Below, piece after piece: positions 8,636 through 15,270 of a stretch of 17,775 nt of DNA. The notes under the pieces are model-generated. The model had not been told where the DNA came from, did not search any database, and worked only from the letters and a program-made list of their open reading frames with translations. The stretch comes from a bacterium (GTDB lineage: Bacteria; Babelota; Babeliae; Babelales; JAUWHS01), in NCBI GenBank assembly GCA_043818275.1, contig JBDRFY010000089.1:1-17775 (forward strand), written 5' to 3'. Each line of letters starts with the position of its first letter. Within the stretch, counting starts at the first letter, position 1. The translations under genes were made by a program, and so were the position numbers.

Positions 8636-10246
8636 ATGAAAAAAACAACTCAATTAAAAAAAATTATTAATTCTTCTGAGTTAGAATTTATTATGGAGGC
8701 GCACAACGGTTTAAGTGCCAAAATTGTGCAAGAGGCAGGTTTTTCTGGCATTTGGGGAAGCGGTCTTTCTATTTCTGCGGCATTGGGTGTTCGCGACAAT
8801 AACGAGGCATCCTGGACGCAAGTTTTAGAGGTTTTAGAATTTATGAGTGATGCAACAACTATTCCAATTTTACTTGATGGTGATACCGGTTATGGAAATT
8901 TTAATAACATGCGTCGCCTTGTTAATAAGTTGGAGCAACGAAATGTTGCCGGAGTTTGTATTGAAGATAAACTTTTTCCAAAAACAAATTCTTTTATTTC
9001 AGGAGAAACTCAACCATTGGCAGATGTTGATGAATTTTGTGGAAAAATTAAAGCGGCAAAAGATAGTCAACTTGATGATGATTTTATTGTTGTTGCAAGA
9101 GTTGAGGCTTTTATTGCCGGTTGGGGTTTAAAGGAAGCGCTTGAACGCGCAGAAAAATATCGTTGTTCTGGTGCGGATGCCATCTTGGTTCATAGCAAAA
9201 AATCGGACTGTTCTGATATTGAAAATTTTATGAAAGAATGGGCAAATAGACATCCAATTGTAATTGTTCCCACAAAATATTATTCAACGCCAACAGATAA
9301 ATTTAGAGAACTGGGAATAAGTTTGATTATTTGGGCAAATCATAATTTAAGGTCTTCGATTCGCGCGATGCAGAAAATTTCAAAACAAATTTATGATGAA
9401 AAAACTTTAATTAATGTTGAAGATAATATAGTTTCGGTTAGCGAAGTTTTTAGATTGCAGGGAGCTGATGAGTTGAAAGATGCAGAAAAAAAATATTTAC
9501 CAGCAACAGGAAAAAATGTAAACGCGATTATTTTAGCGGCTTCAAAAGGGGATGGTTTTGCAGGGCTGACAGATGAGATTCCAAAGGCCATGTTGCCGGT
9601 GAATGGTAAAACCATTCTTGAATCCCAGATTGAAACTTTAAATTTAGCAGGTATTAAAGATATAAACGTTGTTGTTGGTTTTAAAAAAGATAAAATAAAT
9701 TTTGTAAATATAAATAAAATTGATAATGATTTTTTTAATTCAACAACAGAGTTGCACTCATTATTTTTGGCAAGAGAAAAAATTAATGGTGATACTATAA
9801 TTAGTTACGGAGATATTGTTTACAAGAGTTATGTTTTGAATGATTTATTAAATGATACAAATGATATTACTTTGATTGTTGACGCGGACTTTGTAAATTC
9901 AGGTGGTTATAAAGATTTTGTGGACACAGATATTGCCTATTCCAAAAAAGTTTTTTTTCAGGATGTTTCATTAACAAATATTTCTTTTAAATTAAATTCA
10001 GAAAAAATCACGGGAGAGTTTATTGGTATATGGAAAGTTAATTTTTCCGGAGCGAAAATTGTAAAAGATTGTCTTGAAAAAATATCAAAAAAAGATAACT
10101 TTGCAGCCATGCGCATGAGTGATCTTTTTAATGAGATTTTAAAGAATCATAAAATCGCGGTCCGATTTATAAAAGGTTCCTGGCTTGATGTTGACAGTAT
10201 TGTAGATTTGCAAAAGGTTGGAGAATTGCAAAATGTTGGATACTAA
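8636..10246 (+). CDS. pepM: Phosphoenolpyruvate mutase fused to a C-terminal nucleotidyl(cytidylyl)transferase domain
   Basis: Diagnostic [10 protein letters not shown] motif, plus [22 protein letters not shown] and VPTKY. From about residue 290 an NTP-transferase domain follows ([30 protein letters not shown]). Confidence 0.96.
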
Positions 10247-10841
10247 ACAACTAGGTATTGTTTTAAGTCAGTATGGATTTAATTTTTACAGCGGTGTTCC
10301 TTGTTCTTTCTTAAAATATTTAATCAATTATGCAATTAATGACAGACAATTTTTAATGGCAGCTAATGAAGGCGATGCTGTTGCGATTTGCGCGGGAGCT
10401 TTTTTGGGTGGACAAAAATCGGTTTTGCTTTGTCAAAATTCTGGATTAGCAAATACAGTTTCACCATTAACTTCCTTAAATTATATTTTCAAAATTCCCC
10501 TTCTTGGTTTTGTAAGTTTGCGTGGAGAAATTGGTCTTGAGGATGAACCCCAACACGAACTTATGGGTCAAATAACAACTGAATTGTTAGATGTCATGAA
10601 AATTAAATGGGAATTTTTATCTCCAGATTTTGATGTTGCCACTCAACAAATAAAAAGAGCAAATGATTTTATTGAAAAAAATGAGAGCTTTTTCTTTGTT
10701 GTTAAAAAGGGAACATTTGCTCCTGTGGAGTTGAATGGAAAAAAAATTATTCGGATGACCCTTCGAGACGCTTCGCTCCTCAGGGCGAACGGGAAGAGGT
10801 TGTTAAAAAAAGGTTTTTTGAATATGATGAAAAATTTTTAG
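10233..10841 (+). CDS. ppd: Phosphonopyruvate decarboxylase, N-terminal (PYR) half; residues after about 10757 derive from the inserted element
   Basis: [29 protein letters not shown] and VVKKGTF. Start set at ATG 10233, with GGAG 9 nt upstream and overlap of the pepM stop. Confidence 0.88.
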
Positions 10842-11017
10842 ATCAAAGTAAAAATGACTTTTATAGGAAGATTTTTTTTAAATTTTTATCAAAAATAACT
10901 CCAGGGCTATTTAAAATGCAGCCTTTTCTTGAATGTGAAAAAGAAGAAAATATTCTCCCTTCCGTTCGCCCTGAGGAGCCTGAAAAAGCTTTAGCTTTTG
11001 AAGGCGTCTCGAAGGGT
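10758..11017. mobile_element. 260-bp REP/MITE-like element bounded by palindromic inverted repeats, inserted in the ppd linker
   Basis: Left arm 10758-10792 ACCCTTCGAGACGCTTCGCTCCTCAGGGCGAACGG. Right arm 10962-11017 CCGTTCGCCCTGAGGAGC[..]GCGTCTCGAAGGGT is its reverse complement plus an extra internal hairpin (AAAAGCT-TT-AGCTTTT). The arms are GC-rich in AT-rich DNA. Confidence 0.85.
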
Positions 11018-11584
11018 TTCAAACGTCTACAAATTCTGGAAAAATTGACTGAATTAAAAGACGAAAAAACCGTTTTTATTTCATCCACCGGTTTTACATC
11101 GAGAGAACTTTACGAAGTAAGAGATGATGAACAAAATTTTTATATGGTTGGTTCAATGGGATGTGCAAGTTCCATTGGTTTAGGTTTATCTTTGGTGCAA
11201 CAAAACAAAGAAATTGTTGTAATTGAAGGTGACGGATCTCTTTTAATGCGTTTAAGTTCTTTACAAACTAATGCTTTTTATAGTTTAGGAAACATGCTTC
11301 ATATTGTTCTTGATAATAATGCACATGAATCAACAGGTGGGCAAAAAACAGTTTCAGAAAACGTTGATTTTGTTAATTTGGCGTTAGATTCTGGTTATAA
11401 AAAATCTGTTTACATTCATGATTTGGATGAACTTGAAAAAGAATATAAAAAATGGAAAGAGAATAAAATTTTAACATTTTTTTATATTAAAATTTTGCAA
11501 GGTAAAAAAGAAAATTTGGGTAGGCCAAAAATTAAACCGTTTGAGGTTAAAGAAAGATTAATGGAATGGTTAAAAAAGCCGTAA
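10916..11584 (+). CDS. ppd: Phosphonopyruvate decarboxylase, C-terminal ThDP-binding half (frame open from 10706; homology starts about 11018)
   Basis: STGFTSRELY, FYMVGSMG, the ThDP motif GDGSLLM...LDNN, HESTGGQ and LGRP. Confidence 0.88.
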   Translation: MQPFLECEKEENILPSVRPEEPEKALAFEGVSKGFKRLQILEKLTELKDEKTVFISSTGFTSRELYEVRDDEQNFYMVGSMGCASSIGLGLSLVQQNKEIVVIEGDGSLLMRLSSLQTNAFYSLGNMLHIVLDNNAHESTGGQKTVSENVDFVNLALDSGYKKSVYIHDLDELEKEYKKWKENKILTFFYIKILQGKKENLGRPKIKPFEVKERLMEWLKKP

Positions 11585-12279
11585 TCGTTGCAGCTGGACT
11601 TTCAAGTAGATTGTATCCTTTAACAACTGACATCCCAAAAGGTCTTCTTGAGGTTGGATCTATTTCTTTATTGCAAAGAAGTATTAATATTTTGAAAGAA
11701 AATGGAATAGAAAAAATAGCAATTGTTGTTGGGTTTAAAAAAAATAAAATAGTTTCAAGTTTGCAAAATTCCGTTGAATATATCTTTAATCCGTTTTATG
11801 AGCATTGTAATAACATGGGTTCTTTATGGTTTGCAAAAGATTTTATTGATAATGAACCGTTTGTTTATTTGCATGGTGATATTATTTATCAAGATGTGAT
11901 ATTTAAAAATTCCAAAAAATATTTTGAAAATAATTTAAATGATATTGAATTAGTTACAGATTTTGATTTTTTTGATGAGGAATCAATGAAGGTCAGGATT
12001 AATGAAAAAGGGAATTTGATTGAGTCAAAAAAGGAAATCGATTTAGCAAAAGCGCATGGTGAATGGATAGGTTTAACTTTTGTCAGAAATCCTAAGATTT
12101 TATTTAATTACATTGAAAACATTATGTTTAATGAAGGTTTAAATTTTTATGATACTTATGCTTTTACGCAAATGGCGCGTGATGGTTTTAAAATTTTTTG
12201 TAGCTCAACAGAAAAACAACCATGGGTAGAAGTTGATTTTATACATGATTATAAAAAGGCAAAAGAATTATTTGGATAG
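11566..12279 (+). CDS. LicC/PntC-like phosphocholine or phosphonate cytidylyltransferase
   Basis: AVIVAAGLSSRL..LT.DIPKGLL, VVGFKK, FNPFY...NNMGSLW, HGD, DEESMKV, GEWIG and WVEVDF..D; overlaps the ppd end. Confidence 0.85.
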   Translation: MVKKAVIVAAGLSSRLYPLTTDIPKGLLEVGSISLLQRSINILKENGIEKIAIVVGFKKNKIVSSLQNSVEYIFNPFYEHCNNMGSLWFAKDFIDNEPFVYLHGDIIYQDVIFKNSKKYFENNLNDIELVTDFDFFDEESMKVRINEKGNLIESKKEIDLAKAHGEWIGLTFVRNPKILFNYIENIMFNEGLNFYDTYAFTQMARDGFKIFCSSTEKQPWVEVDFIHDYKKAKELFG

Positions 12280-12284
12280 GGGGA

Positions 12285-13394
12285 ATGATGGATTTTTCGT
12301 ATTATAATCCCGTAAGGATGGAATTTGGACAAAATAAATTTTCTGTCGTAGGAGAAGCGATTGAAGACAGAAGAGCATTGTTGGTTACGATGCCTGTTTT
12401 TAAAGAGTTGGGATTTGTTGATGAAATTAAAGCTTATACAGAGAATATTGTTTTTACTTTGGATGATGTTGAAGCTCAGCCCAATTTTATAAATTTAAGA
12501 CGACAATATGATCTGGTCTGGAAAAATGATTTTGATGTGATAGTGGCCCTTGGTGGTGGCTCTGTTATTGATACAGCAAAAGTATTGTCTGTTTTTAATC
12601 CGGAAAAAGAGTTTGATTTTATTGATGATTTAATAAGAGAAAAAATTGCAAAGTCTGGTTATAACAAGATTCCAGTTATAGCAATTCCAACAACTGCCGG
12701 TACGGGAAGTGAAGTGACTCCATGGGCAACAGTCTGGGATACTGACAGAGTAAAAAAATATTCTTTGCATTTAAAAGATTTGTGGTGTGAAACTGCAATT
12801 TTAGATCCATGTTTAACCTTATCGATGTCCAGAAGTTTAACAATTCAAACAGCTCTTGATGCTTTGTCTCACGCTTTGGAAGCTATATGGAATAAAAATG
12901 CAAATTATGTTTCAACCGCTCATGGAATTCGTTCTTCAAGAGATATTCTGAAAAATTTGCCTCTTGCTCTTCGTAATTTATTTGATGTTGATTATCGTGA
13001 AAAATTATTATTGGCCTCTTTTCATGCTGGACTTGCTTTTTCTAATACTCAAACCTCAATTGCGCACGCGATTTCTTATTTTATTACTGGACGCAAAGGA
13101 ACTCCTCATGGTATTGCATGTAGTTTTACGTTACCGGATATTATTGATGCTGTTGTTGGTCAGGATATTATAATTGATAATGCAATAAGAAGTATTTTCG
13201 GTGAAGTATCAAGCATTCCGCTGCGAAAATTTTTTGCGCATTTGGGTGTTTCGGTTTACCTGAAAGATTATGGAATTAAAAAGGATGAGTTATTTGATTT
13301 GAAGAATTCATTAATTTCTAATCAGCGGGCAAGTAATAGTTTGATTAATAATTCAAAGTTATTTAATATTTTTGAAAAACAATTTTGTGTTTAA
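12285..13394 (+). CDS. Iron-containing (group III) alcohol dehydrogenase; probable phosphonoacetaldehyde reductase making 2-hydroxyethylphosphonate
   Basis: GGGSVIDTAK, PTTAGTGSEVTPWAT, and metal ligands in DALSH, AHAISY and HG. Position after pepM-ppd matches PhpC/FomC-type reductases. Confidence 0.85.
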   Translation: MMDFSYYNPVRMEFGQNKFSVVGEAIEDRRALLVTMPVFKELGFVDEIKAYTENIVFTLDDVEAQPNFINLRRQYDLVWKNDFDVIVALGGGSVIDTAKVLSVFNPEKEFDFIDDLIREKIAKSGYNKIPVIAIPTTAGTGSEVTPWATVWDTDRVKKYSLHLKDLWCETAILDPCLTLSMSRSLTIQTALDALSHALEAIWNKNANYVSTAHGIRSSRDILKNLPLALRNLFDVDYREKLLLASFHAGLAFSNTQTSIAHAISYFITGRKGTPHGIACSFTLPDIIDAVVGQDIIIDNAIRSIFGEVSSIPLRKFFAHLGVSVYLKDYGIKKDELFDLKNSLISNQRASNSLINNSKLFNIFEKQFCV

Positions 13395-15270
13395 TATTTT
13401 TTTATTTATTCAACCACTACTGATATCTTCTTATGCTGTTTTATTCACTTATTTATCCGCTATCGGTGAAGTATCTTTTTGGGAATTTTTTATAACTTAT
13501 TTTATTGTTTTGCTTTTTTCTTTGTTTTTAATTTTTCTTTTTAAATTTATTTATAAAAATTTTTCTAAAGCAACATTGTTTTCATCAATTTTATTATTAT
13601 TTTTTTGGAGTGTTACACCATTATCAAGAACTTTGTACGCGGTTAAATTTTTTGATATTCAAATTTTTCGTTTGCGATATTTGATTCCGGTTGTTGTTTT
13701 TTTTTTATTTATTTTATTTATTAGGTTATTTAAATCTAAAAAGCAAAATTATTTATTATCTACTCTCCTTTTTTATCCTTATTTAGCGTTAAATCTTTTT
13801 TGTGTGTTTAATATTGTTAAAGAAAAAATAGAAATAAATAAATTGATAAAAAAATTGGAATTAAACAGTGTCGCCCCGCAAACGGGGCTATGCGATGGTT
13901 ATTCTTTTGTACCCAGAGCTGCACCGCTTTGCGGCTTGCACTGGGCTAACAAATTTCACCCATTTCATGGGTTGTCCAATAAAAAGACATATTCTATTTA
14001 CAAAGAGCAATATGATGTAATTGAAAACGGTACAGCTTTCAATCAGTTTGCGGTTGTTGATAAATTATCTAATTTGTCTGATTACAATGATTTGCAAGAT
14101 AGAGAGGCGCATTCTCCTGTTTTTAATGAGTTTGCGGTTGTTGATAAATTATCTAATGTATTTGATAAGACCTCGAAGAGGTCGGCAATTTTTAGCCCAG
14201 TGCAAGCCGCAAAGCGGCGTAGCTCTGTGTTGGAAAAAAAACATAAATTAAGCCCCGCGGCGGGGCGACACATAAATCCAGATATTTATTTTATTGTTTT
14301 AGATACTTATTTATCCAATGAAGCATTGAAACAAAATTTTAATTTTGATAACAAAGAATTTTTGGATAATTTACAGAAAAAAGGTTTTGAGGTTTTTAAT
14401 AATTCTTACAGTAACTATCCGGAAACGGTTTCTTCTTTGTCTTCGACATTAAACATGAATTATCACGAAAATGTTAAATCTGGTGATATTCAACAATTTT
14501 TTGGCCTTGGTTTTTATAAAAATAAAAATAATATTGTATCAAAGTTTTTAAAATCTCAAGGTTATAAAATAATTAATATTCCATCAGTTTGGGGGCATGT
14601 TCCAAAAAATAATTATGCAAATGTTGATTATTATTCAAAATTTCCAAAACGTTTTTTTGCAAAACTTCTTGAACACATGTCTATAATGTCTCCGTTCGTT
14701 TATTTATATATTGGTTATAATTCAAGAACGGTTTTTTTTGATCAATTAAAAATAATTGAAAAACATATAAAAGATCTTTCACCTAAATTTATTTTTGCGC
14801 ATATTTTATGTCCGCATGCGCCATTTGTTTTTGATGAAAATGGTGGAAATACAAATTCAGCTGATTGGCTTAATGATAAAAAATTGTATCTTGGACAATT
14901 GAAGTTTGTTAATAAAAAAATCAATGAATTAATTGATAAAATTTTGCAACAATCTTCAAATCCACCAATTATAATTTTGCAGGCTGATCACGGTTTGAAT
15001 GCAGGAATTATGTTTTCAGATTATTCAAAAATAAATGAAATTGATAAAGAAAAATTAATAAAATGTTTTGGCATTTTAAATGCTGTTTATTATCCAGATT
15101 TAAATCATTTGGATGAACCCTTCGACAAGCTTCCCCCTTCGCCTATTAATAATTTTAGACTTTTATTTAATAATTATTTTGGTACTAATTTTGAATTATT
15201 AAAAGATCAATCATTTATTGGACCAGATAGTAATGGTCAATTTGTAAAAATTGAAAAATTAAGAGGGTAA
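13372..15270 (+). CDS. Membrane-anchored alkaline-phosphatase-superfamily (LtaS/EptA/sulfatase-like) protein with a roughly 135-aa linker insertion
   Basis: About five N-terminal TM helices, then PDIYFIVLDTY, SNYPET (Thr nucleophile position), HILCPHAPF and QADHG. The TTG start is uncertain. Confidence 0.82.
   Translation: MKNNFVFNIFLFIQPLLISSYAVLFTYLSAIGEVSFWEFFITYFIVLLFSLFLIFLFKFIYKNFSKATLFSSILLLFFWSVTPLSRTLYAVKFFDIQIFRLRYLIPVVVFFLFILFIRLFKSKKQNYLLSTLLFYPYLALNLFCVFNIVKEKIEINKLIKKLELNSVAPQTGLCDGYSFVPRAAPLCGLHWANKFHPFHGLSNKKTYSIYKEQYDVIENGTAFNQFAVVDKLSNLSDYNDLQDREAHSPVFNEFAVVDKLSNVFDKTSKRSAIFSPVQAAKRRSSVLEKKHKLSPAAGRHINPDIYFIVLDTYLSNEALKQNFNFDNKEFLDNLQKKGFEVFNNSYSNYPETVSSLSSTLNMNYHENVKSGDIQQFFGLGFYKNKNNIVSKFLKSQGYKIINIPSVWGHVPKNNYANVDYYSKFPKRFFAKLLEHMSIMSPFVYLYIGYNSRTVFFDQLKIIEKHIKDLSPKFIFAHILCPHAPFVFDENGGNTNSADWLNDKKLYLGQLKFVNKKINELIDKILQQSSNPPIIILQADHGLNAGIMFSDYSKINEIDKEKLIKCFGILNAVYYPDLNHLDEPFDKLPPSPINNFRLLFNNYFGTNFELLKDQSFIGPDSNGQFVKIEKLRG
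13868..14271. mobile_element. 404-bp in-frame REP/MITE-like element with composite inverted-repeat ends
   Basis: Outer IR GTGTCGCCCCGC (13868-13879) / GCGGGGCGACAC (14260-14271). Inner 36-bp IR 13914-13949 / 14192-14227 with 2 mismatches. Each end carries three local hairpins. Absent from the adjacent paralog. Confidence 0.88.
14045..14157 (+). repeat. Two exact 29-bp direct repeats, 84-bp period, inside the element
   Basis: AGTTTGCGGTTGTTGATAAATTATCTAAT at 14045-14073 and 14129-14157, encoding FNQFAVVDKLSN and FNEFAVVDKLSN. Confidence 0.95.
15117..15133 (+). repeat. Possible short relic of the same repeat family as the ppd element
   Basis: ACCCTTCGACAAGCTTC versus ACCCTTCGAGACGCTTC (10758-10774), 15/17 identical; lies in a loop that differs from the paralog. 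Confidence 0.45.

Follow-up and report, generated by a model that had tools for sequence, protein, structure and literature searches.

Palindromic Repeats in the Interdomain Linker of a Babelota ppd Gene: A Probable In-Frame Expansion with One Missing Base

The Interrupted ppd Gene and Its Neighbours

The window analysed here is a 17,775-nucleotide stretch (contig JBDRFY010000089.1, assembly GCA_043818275.1) of a Babelota genome in 92 contigs, which we call G000 (contigs C5, C36 and so on). G001, a genome of the same genus that is 90% complete, was used for comparison. All features of the locus lie on the forward strand. The pepM gene, fused to a nucleotidyltransferase domain (8636–10246; TIGR02320 above cut-off), is followed by ppd, by a nucleotidyltransferase gene that overlaps the ppd stop (11566–12279; below all cut-offs) and by an iron-containing alcohol dehydrogenase of phosphonate clusters (12285–13394; TIGR03405, 363 bits against a cut-off of 424). 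Upstream lies a gene of the glycerophosphotransferase family, and downstream are two membrane proteins with sulfatase domains. We take these neighbours to point to hydroxyethylphosphonate surface modification. The cluster (8636–13394) is rare: besides the split copy, Ppd was found above cut-off in 1 of 261 genomes (G001), which suggests that the genus of G000 and G001 acquired it.

The ppd gene is present as two overlapping open frames. The first (N-frame, 10233–10841) encodes the PYR domain and matches TIGR03297 positions 1–169, TIGR03845 and RhiE (PDB 9iz3_A), with 83% identity to G001 Ppd. Its homology stops at about 10735–10755, and its final ~28 codons read into an insert as far as the TAG at 10839–10841. 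The second (C-frame, 10706–11584), which is −1 relative to the first, is free of stops for 292 codons after a stop at 10703 and encodes the PP domain from 11021, matching TIGR03297 170–360, TIGR03846 and RhiF (PDB 9iz3_B). The two halves score 172 and 205 bits with TIGR03297, each alone under the 312.5 cut-off, and the insert lies where profile positions 1–169 and 170–360 meet. All 53 invariant Ppd columns are kept and pepM is adjacent, which places the gene among the phosphonopyruvate decarboxylases (TIGR03297). An earlier, sequence-only reading had described ppd as interrupted by a hairpin-bounded insert, at what proves to be the interdomain linker, and had noted that one extra base gives a 450-residue protein; both points hold, the second by arithmetic.

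The junction begins with an SD-like GGAG (10727–10730) that spans Val-Glu codons, followed by a run of eight A's (10739–10746). The left repeat unit has a bipartite palindrome core (10758–10792), with a family-like flank probably starting at ~10749. The AT-rich spacer (10793–10960) is unique in the genome and coding-like in the C-frame; it contains an A7 run (10805–10811), a T6 run (10814–10819), the N-frame stop and an ATG (10916–10918), and ends in the host linker's Leu-Pro. The right repeat unit (10961–11020) is inverted and carries an inner hairpin. As had been reported, perfect inverted repeats pair 10758–10771 with 11004–11017 (14 nt) and 10775–10792 with 10962–10979 (18 nt). The predicted fold of 10740–11035 reaches −102 kcal/mol (z −7.8) and that of the right unit −26.4 kcal/mol, and in neither case was any of 200 shuffles as good. 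In a test with 20,000 dinucleotide shuffles, the C-frame stays open across the AT-rich middle in 0.76% of them, and at least one of the three frames does so in 2.2%. The inverted repeats and the openness of the C-frame exceed chance.

The Arms Are Copies of a Dispersed Repeat

The two arms are copies of a dispersed, bipartite palindromic repeat, of which we counted 36 units on 22 of the 92 contigs and none in a reversed control. The left core has a copy at C44:883–916 that is identical over 34 of 34 nt. The core motif gave no match in G001; among 261 other genomes of the phylum, 54 had a match, the best of them to the arms and many weak ones to AT-rich parts only. Where repeats occur as intergenic pairs, they face outward and have a conserved spacer. 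Gene-less pairs of this type are found on C6, C27, C30, C50 and C71.

Inverted repeat variants, oriented as in the intergenic pairs, also flank 2 of 6 small GIY-YIG genes inspected (C18:20566–20778 and C75:30805–31020), and these two are candidate parent cassettes. A search of the small GIY-YIG nucleases against NCBIfam profiles gave no family above cut-off. The published SRM pattern of the Ssn/CGTC REP type has no match in the insert or in the genome, so the repeat, which works in the manner of an Ssn cassette, is at best a candidate for one. Y1 transposases were considered as parents and rejected, as none of the 5 genes inspected has a flanking pair. We also rejected a MITE identity: the ends have no target duplication or microhomology, the interior is unique and the right arm is an in-frame unit of its own.

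No homologue of the AT-rich spacer was found. Its origin as a duplicate of upstream ppd was not accepted: the protein similarity lacked significance (1601 of 2000 shuffles) and the DNA similarity was borderline (23 of 1000), while comparison with the G001 linker gave 160 of 1000 and comparison with 41 linkers 20 of 300. The borderline DNA similarity joins spacer positions 10912–10958 to upstream ppd 10678–10723, possibly a decayed duplication. A promoter and terminator scan gave chance-level results. A literature search over titles and the openings of abstracts returned no paper on a frameshifted ppd and none on this repeat in Dependentiae; the supplements of PMC3733652 and PMC11893778 may list the family.

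Copies of the Repeat Are Translated in Other Genes

Could the repeat be carried within proteins? The motif has 85 matches, and 24 of them fall within long ORFs. Among the 14 sense copies there, 11 are read in the frame that corresponds to the ppd C-frame and 3 in that of the N-frame; of the antisense copies, 9 of 10, the ppd right arm included, are read as in ppd. The closest parallel is uvrA (C36:42925–43077), where the same inward-facing pair is in frame, adds 68 codons relative to G001 and has both arms in the ppd C-frame reading. The family thus has in-frame copies in unrelated genes that are absent from the orthologues, as is characteristic of intragenic REP- and RPE-like repeats.

A comparison of 520 orthologue pairs with G001 showed 43 in-frame inserts of at least 10 aa in 30 genes of G000, not all of them repeats. 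The reverse comparison (501 pairs) gave 22 inserts in 20 genes. A second in-frame insert lies in the window itself, at 13860–14280, where 127 codons absent from G001 are present in a sulfatase-domain gene (13372–15270). It is bounded by a different palindrome family, one that flanks a Y1 transposase (C36:2823–3164). Here too the ends of the cassette stand in reversed order, and the insert contains a direct repeat of 46 nt.

Linker Length and the Case Against Precise Removal

G001 Ppd is a single chain of 384 residues, without the repeat, and its linker ends in Leu-Pro-Lys-Arg-Leu. In the C-frame of the window, Leu-Pro is followed by the exactly 20 codons of the right repeat unit and then by Lys-Arg-Leu. 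Because the repeat sits exactly between Pro and Lys-Arg-Leu, the right arm can be recognized as a 60-nt in-frame insertion of its own, and the spacer ends in host linker. As a self-contained unit, this arm shows that the stretch from one inverted repeat to the other is not one element.

The sequence-only reading had proposed that precise removal of 10758–11017 from DNA or RNA restores a normal-sized Ppd of 363 residues. The deletion is in frame by arithmetic, the two halves of the profile meet there and the ends pair in the predicted fold. However, while the total length is normal, the linker would fall 21 residues short of that in the G001 orthologue, and each of the 76 single-chain homologues exceeds the deletion product there by 2 to 21 residues (median 14). 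The deletion would also lose the host Pro, present in 43 of 62 homologues, and keep one repeat-derived codon. A short linker need not be fatal, since the TIGR03297 profile joins the halves without a gap. The ends of the proposed deletion belong to two genome-wide repeat units, with no microhomology or target duplication at the junction, and the other copies of the repeat are simply translated. An Rfam scan of 10500–11300 gave 9 chance-level matches, none of them an intron and all far below the gathering scores. No joint that skips the insert was present in four shallow sequencing runs, which is weak evidence because no piece in them crosses the whole insert or the left junction. Taken together, we give precise removal next to no credence.

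The Insert Reads as Coding, and One Base Is Missing

Codon scores favour the C-frame throughout the insert. Over the left arm they are +3.5 bits in the C-frame versus −7.9 in the N-frame, and over 10799–10840 they are +7.1 versus +0.9 bits; directly after the A8 run the difference is weak (+2.1 versus −1.1). The spacer scores 0.31 bits per codon in the C-frame, compared with 0.42 in the true PP domain. This coding appearance along its whole length makes it probable that the insert was once translated and that a base was lost afterwards. The frame scores point to a loss no later than the left arm, with the A8 run as the preferred site, since from there on the C-frame outscores the N-frame. On the other hand, the N-frame Ile-Ile-Arg after the A8 run resembles Ile-Val-Arg in G001 and would put the slip farther downstream, although these bases are also similar to what flanks the repeat copies in uvrA.

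In the structural model of G001 Ppd, the linker (residues ~165–198) is a coil and the least confident part (blocks with pLDDT of 72–91, against a mean of 94), so that a long insert would plausibly be tolerated there. The net expansion would be ~66 residues (450 compared with 384 in G001). A single-sequence fold of the C-frame (pLDDT 38) was not used.

We found no second example of the insert. A search for another protein with the C-frame insert returned only the query itself, and none of 30 candidates of 160–511 aa was an in-frame 450-residue allele. The exact pattern around the A8 run had no match in a collection of genome contigs, from which the own genome may be left out. In exact look-ups the N-half ORF, with either start, was absent from the collection searched, and the C-half and two neighbours were found on one contig only.

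Sequencing Evidence and Frameshifts at A Runs

We mapped four DNA runs from other studies, all of them shallow and yielding read-sized contigs; a look for RNA runs with the locus listed none. Run X1 covers 10806–10956 and run X3 covers 10905–11089, in both cases with no difference and no gap. Their agreement indicates that the right junction is real in DNA, that there is no indel between 10812 and 11089 and that the T6 heptamer is no miscall. The X1 piece from 10806 begins inside the A7 run and has no bearing on its length. A second X1 record (10598–10748, gapless) has two differences from the assembly, one at 10639 and the other at an unlisted position near an end, possibly the far end; nine A's would produce exactly one mismatch with this record, at 10747. 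Nine other exact pieces have no differences over ~1,290 bases. This record hints at nine A's at 10739, although no read displays them.

Is a single-base shift of this kind unusual in the assembly? Compared with G001, eight frameshift entries, which correspond to seven loci, were found in the 520 orthologue pairs; these include valS (A11), an amidase gene (A11), polA (A10), one antisense artefact and ppd, which is the only one of the seven at a large insert. The reverse comparison, over 501 pairs, gave 2 entries, and neither lies at a long run of A's. Frameshifts at A10–A12 runs lie at valS C39:523, polA C78:22947, amidase C75:21570 and three other sites (C5:3331, C57:6606, C64:15568), and may reflect either systematic assembly error or an endosymbiont-like reliance on slippage. 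All five A10–11 runs with at least 100 open codons on both sides are shifted, whereas of 290 A8 runs flanked in the same way by long open frames, 282 keep the frame. In 5 of the 6 other A-run shifts there is one base too many at a run of at least 10; ppd has one too few at a run of 8, and only polA shares its sign. The A-run frameshifts are a property of the assembly or the strain, among which ppd is atypical in run length and, polA aside, in sign. If the account preferred below holds, single-base frameshifts in this assembly call for reads before any biological interpretation.

Single-base frameshifts also affect a pgsA fusion gene (C19:~15300, near a C5 run) and a gene of 359 aa (C80:~46344). 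An A19 run at C79:495 lies directly upstream of a long ORF, presumably a group II intron reverse transcriptase, to judge from its motifs. In two near-identical metagenome loci, L077 and L078, the Ppd linker is in frame in one and frameshifted in the other, so this linker readily shows single-base differences.

Is the Junction a Recoding Signal or a Switch?

The junction has the layout of a −1 frameshift signal, with a slippery heptamer in phase, an SD-like word upstream and structure downstream. The three heptamers described earlier (10739, 10805 and 10814) are indeed all in N-frame phase, the A run is 8 long and GGAG is at 10727–10730. On one reading this arrangement is a selected switch, in which GGAG, A_AAA_AAA and the hairpin drive −1 frameshifting, or A8/A9 varies in DNA or RNA, and so tune surface phosphonylation. 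Bacterial −1 signals share this layout, and in E. coli the V_VV.A_AA.R motifs belong to the efficient ones (PMC4066793). The triad of SD-like word, A7 and hairpin is rare: among 875 A7 sites that are in phase within intact ORFs, only 1 has it, and this site adjoins another copy of the repeat. In addition, the poly-A frameshifts of essential genes in Blochmannia are described as possibly corrected by slippage (PMC3017870), and G000 has several frameshifts at A runs.

However, in-phase heptamers of the ppd kind occur at 1.07 per 135 nt in 635 long ORFs, 621 of 6002 windows hold at least three of them, and an A run of at least 8 is present in 334 of the 635 ORFs; the three heptamers and the A8 run are not above chance. 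The local hairpin does not exceed its shuffles in stability (z −0.1 and −1.6). When an A run loses one base, an in-phase heptamer arises by itself, and the hairpin is brought in by the repeat; it is probably the repeat's own structure and not a selected recoding signal. Only GGAG then remains as a coincidence in the triad, and an SD-like word precedes 53 of the 875 sites. GGAG, the A8 run and the repeat are all absent from the ppd orthologue of G001. In a transcriptome-wide study of Buchnera (PMC5574713), no transcription error restoring a frame was found. A programmed switch gains no support from these comparisons, and we find a selected one very doubtful. Frameshifting by −1, or slippage during transcription, may still take place incidentally at the A8 run.

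A bolder variant can be drawn. The repeat, landing a short way downstream of a chance SD-like word and an A run, would have built a working slippage or −1 site de novo at the gate of surface phosphonate synthesis, and A8/A9 alleles would switch the phosphonate coat between low and high. As valS and polA are also out of frame at A10–A11 runs, this variant may extend to a genome-wide reliance on slippage. We hold it to be quite improbable; if recoding were measured, it would be a case of a repeat creating a frameshift signal de novo.

Two Subunits or a Decaying Gene?

Could the two frames instead encode separate subunits? The insert would have supplied both a stop (10839) and a start (10916), giving alpha and beta subunits like RhiE/RhiF or ComD/ComE. 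The break falls at the PYR–PP boundary, and RhiEF is an active Ppd of two ORFs (PDB 9iz3; PMC12141560). The linker is a coil of lowest confidence in the G001 model, and both halves look conserved. The ATG at 10916, the sole ATG, GTG or TTG in the C-frame ahead of the PP domain, has AGGG 9 nt upstream and would yield a putative 222-residue product. Against this, the C-frame is open and coding-like for 70 codons upstream of that ATG, which a split leaves unexplained. Both pepM and the dehydrogenase gene have a stronger SD than this start, which is itself buried in the large hairpin of the predicted fold. Furthermore, of 81 related Ppd loci, 76 are single chains, 2 are frameshifted, 3 are partial and none is cleanly split at the linker. 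A functional split is thus unlikely in our judgement. If it were real, it would be gene fission caught in the act, with Ppd returning to the two-subunit state of RhiEF and ComDE, the meaning of which is called enigmatic in a review (PMC12141560).

Alternatively, the frameshift may be real and ppd inactive or decaying, as an early pseudogene. Two nearly invariant Gly residues are Ser in the C-half, in G000 only, which may mean relaxed selection; departures at conserved columns number 8 in G000 versus 6 in G001. With Ppd above cut-off in a single genome of the 261, the gene is dispensable for most relatives. However, there is no second lesion, every invariant column is intact, and so are pepM and the downstream genes. 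The dN/dS values against G001 are 0.04 and 0.15 for the two ppd halves, within or below the 0.09–0.17 of four neighbouring genes (another two lacked an orthologue in the contig compared), although this measure is blind to very recent relaxation. Decay therefore appears highly improbable. Even a true frameshift need not kill the pathway, because a two-subunit Ppd exists naturally and the ATG at 10916 could start a putative beta subunit.

The Preferred Account

The observations are probably best explained by an in-frame repeat expansion of a known kind, combined with one unprogrammed missing base in an A run. The ancestral ppd would have been a single chain. After the split from the sister species, two GIY-YIG-associated palindromic repeat units may have entered the PYR–PP linker in opposite orientations, with AT-rich DNA between them, and the repeat-bearing linker would have been translated in frame as a net expansion of ~66 residues, as in uvrA and other genes. 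We infer this order of events; the repeat family, the in-frame copies and the intact orthologue behind it are observed. Finally, one base would have gone missing, most likely when nine A's at 10739–10746 were read as, or mutated to, eight, otherwise at the A7 run at 10805. That the missing base is an assembly error or a minority allele, with cells making the 450-residue enzyme, comes close to an even prospect without reaching it. In a less likely form of the same account, the slippage mutation would be real and recent, with leakiness provided by incidental slippage or frameshifting.

Of the sequence-only reading as a whole, its two mundane alternatives, a homopolymer error and two subunits, remain live, and the switch and the excision are largely unsupported. 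The comparison of related ppd alleles that it had called for showed an intact single chain in G001 and at 75 other loci and turned up no relative with the insert. If the preferred account holds, ppd adds to the cases in which palindromic repeats decorate a protein, with an insert towards the upper end of the lengths known.

Comparison with Known Systems

The layout of SD-like word, heptamer and hairpin is like that of IS-type −1 frameshift signals (PMC4066793). The poly-A frameshifts of Blochmannia and Buchnera (PMC3017870) share with ppd an AT-rich genome and a gene that is intact but for one indel in a run of A's; their tracts, in contrast, are of at least 9 and some are conserved between species, whereas the ppd run is of 8 and unconserved. 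RhiEF and the sulfopyruvate decarboxylase ComDE (PMC12141560; PDB 9iz3/9iz4) have separate PYR and PP ORFs with the break at the same boundary. Those are old, clean splits, whereas the nearest relatives of this ppd are fused and its two ORFs overlap through repeat-derived DNA.

With regard to the repeat, the Ssn GIY-YIG nucleases and their SRM/NTS hairpins (Chenal et al. 2025, PMC11893778) offer a close parallel in the small single-domain gene, the flanking inverted hairpin repeats and the many solo repeats. The difference lies in the SRM pattern, which matches neither the insert nor the genome. Rickettsia palindromic elements (PMC10969869) are likewise GC-rich palindromes in frame in unrelated genes of an AT-rich genome. 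They differ, in a comparison by description only, in being ~150 bp long with a conserved peptide, whereas the G000 units are 35–60 bp and the spacer is unique.

The intragenic REPs of the GTAG and CGTC super-families (Di Nocera et al. 2013, PMC3733652) are palindromes of 20–40 bp that occur as singletons and dimers, with dimer spacers conserved in one orientation and variable in the other; many are in frame in ORFs, including uvrA, and clusters encode up to 82 aa. The G000 unit differs from these in being bipartite with a variable inner hairpin, no GTAG/CGTC tag was seen in it, and, as assembled, the copy in ppd stands one base out of frame. It nevertheless resembles them in occurring as single and paired palindromes, in spacers that depend on orientation and in copies carried in frame within ORFs, uvrA among them.
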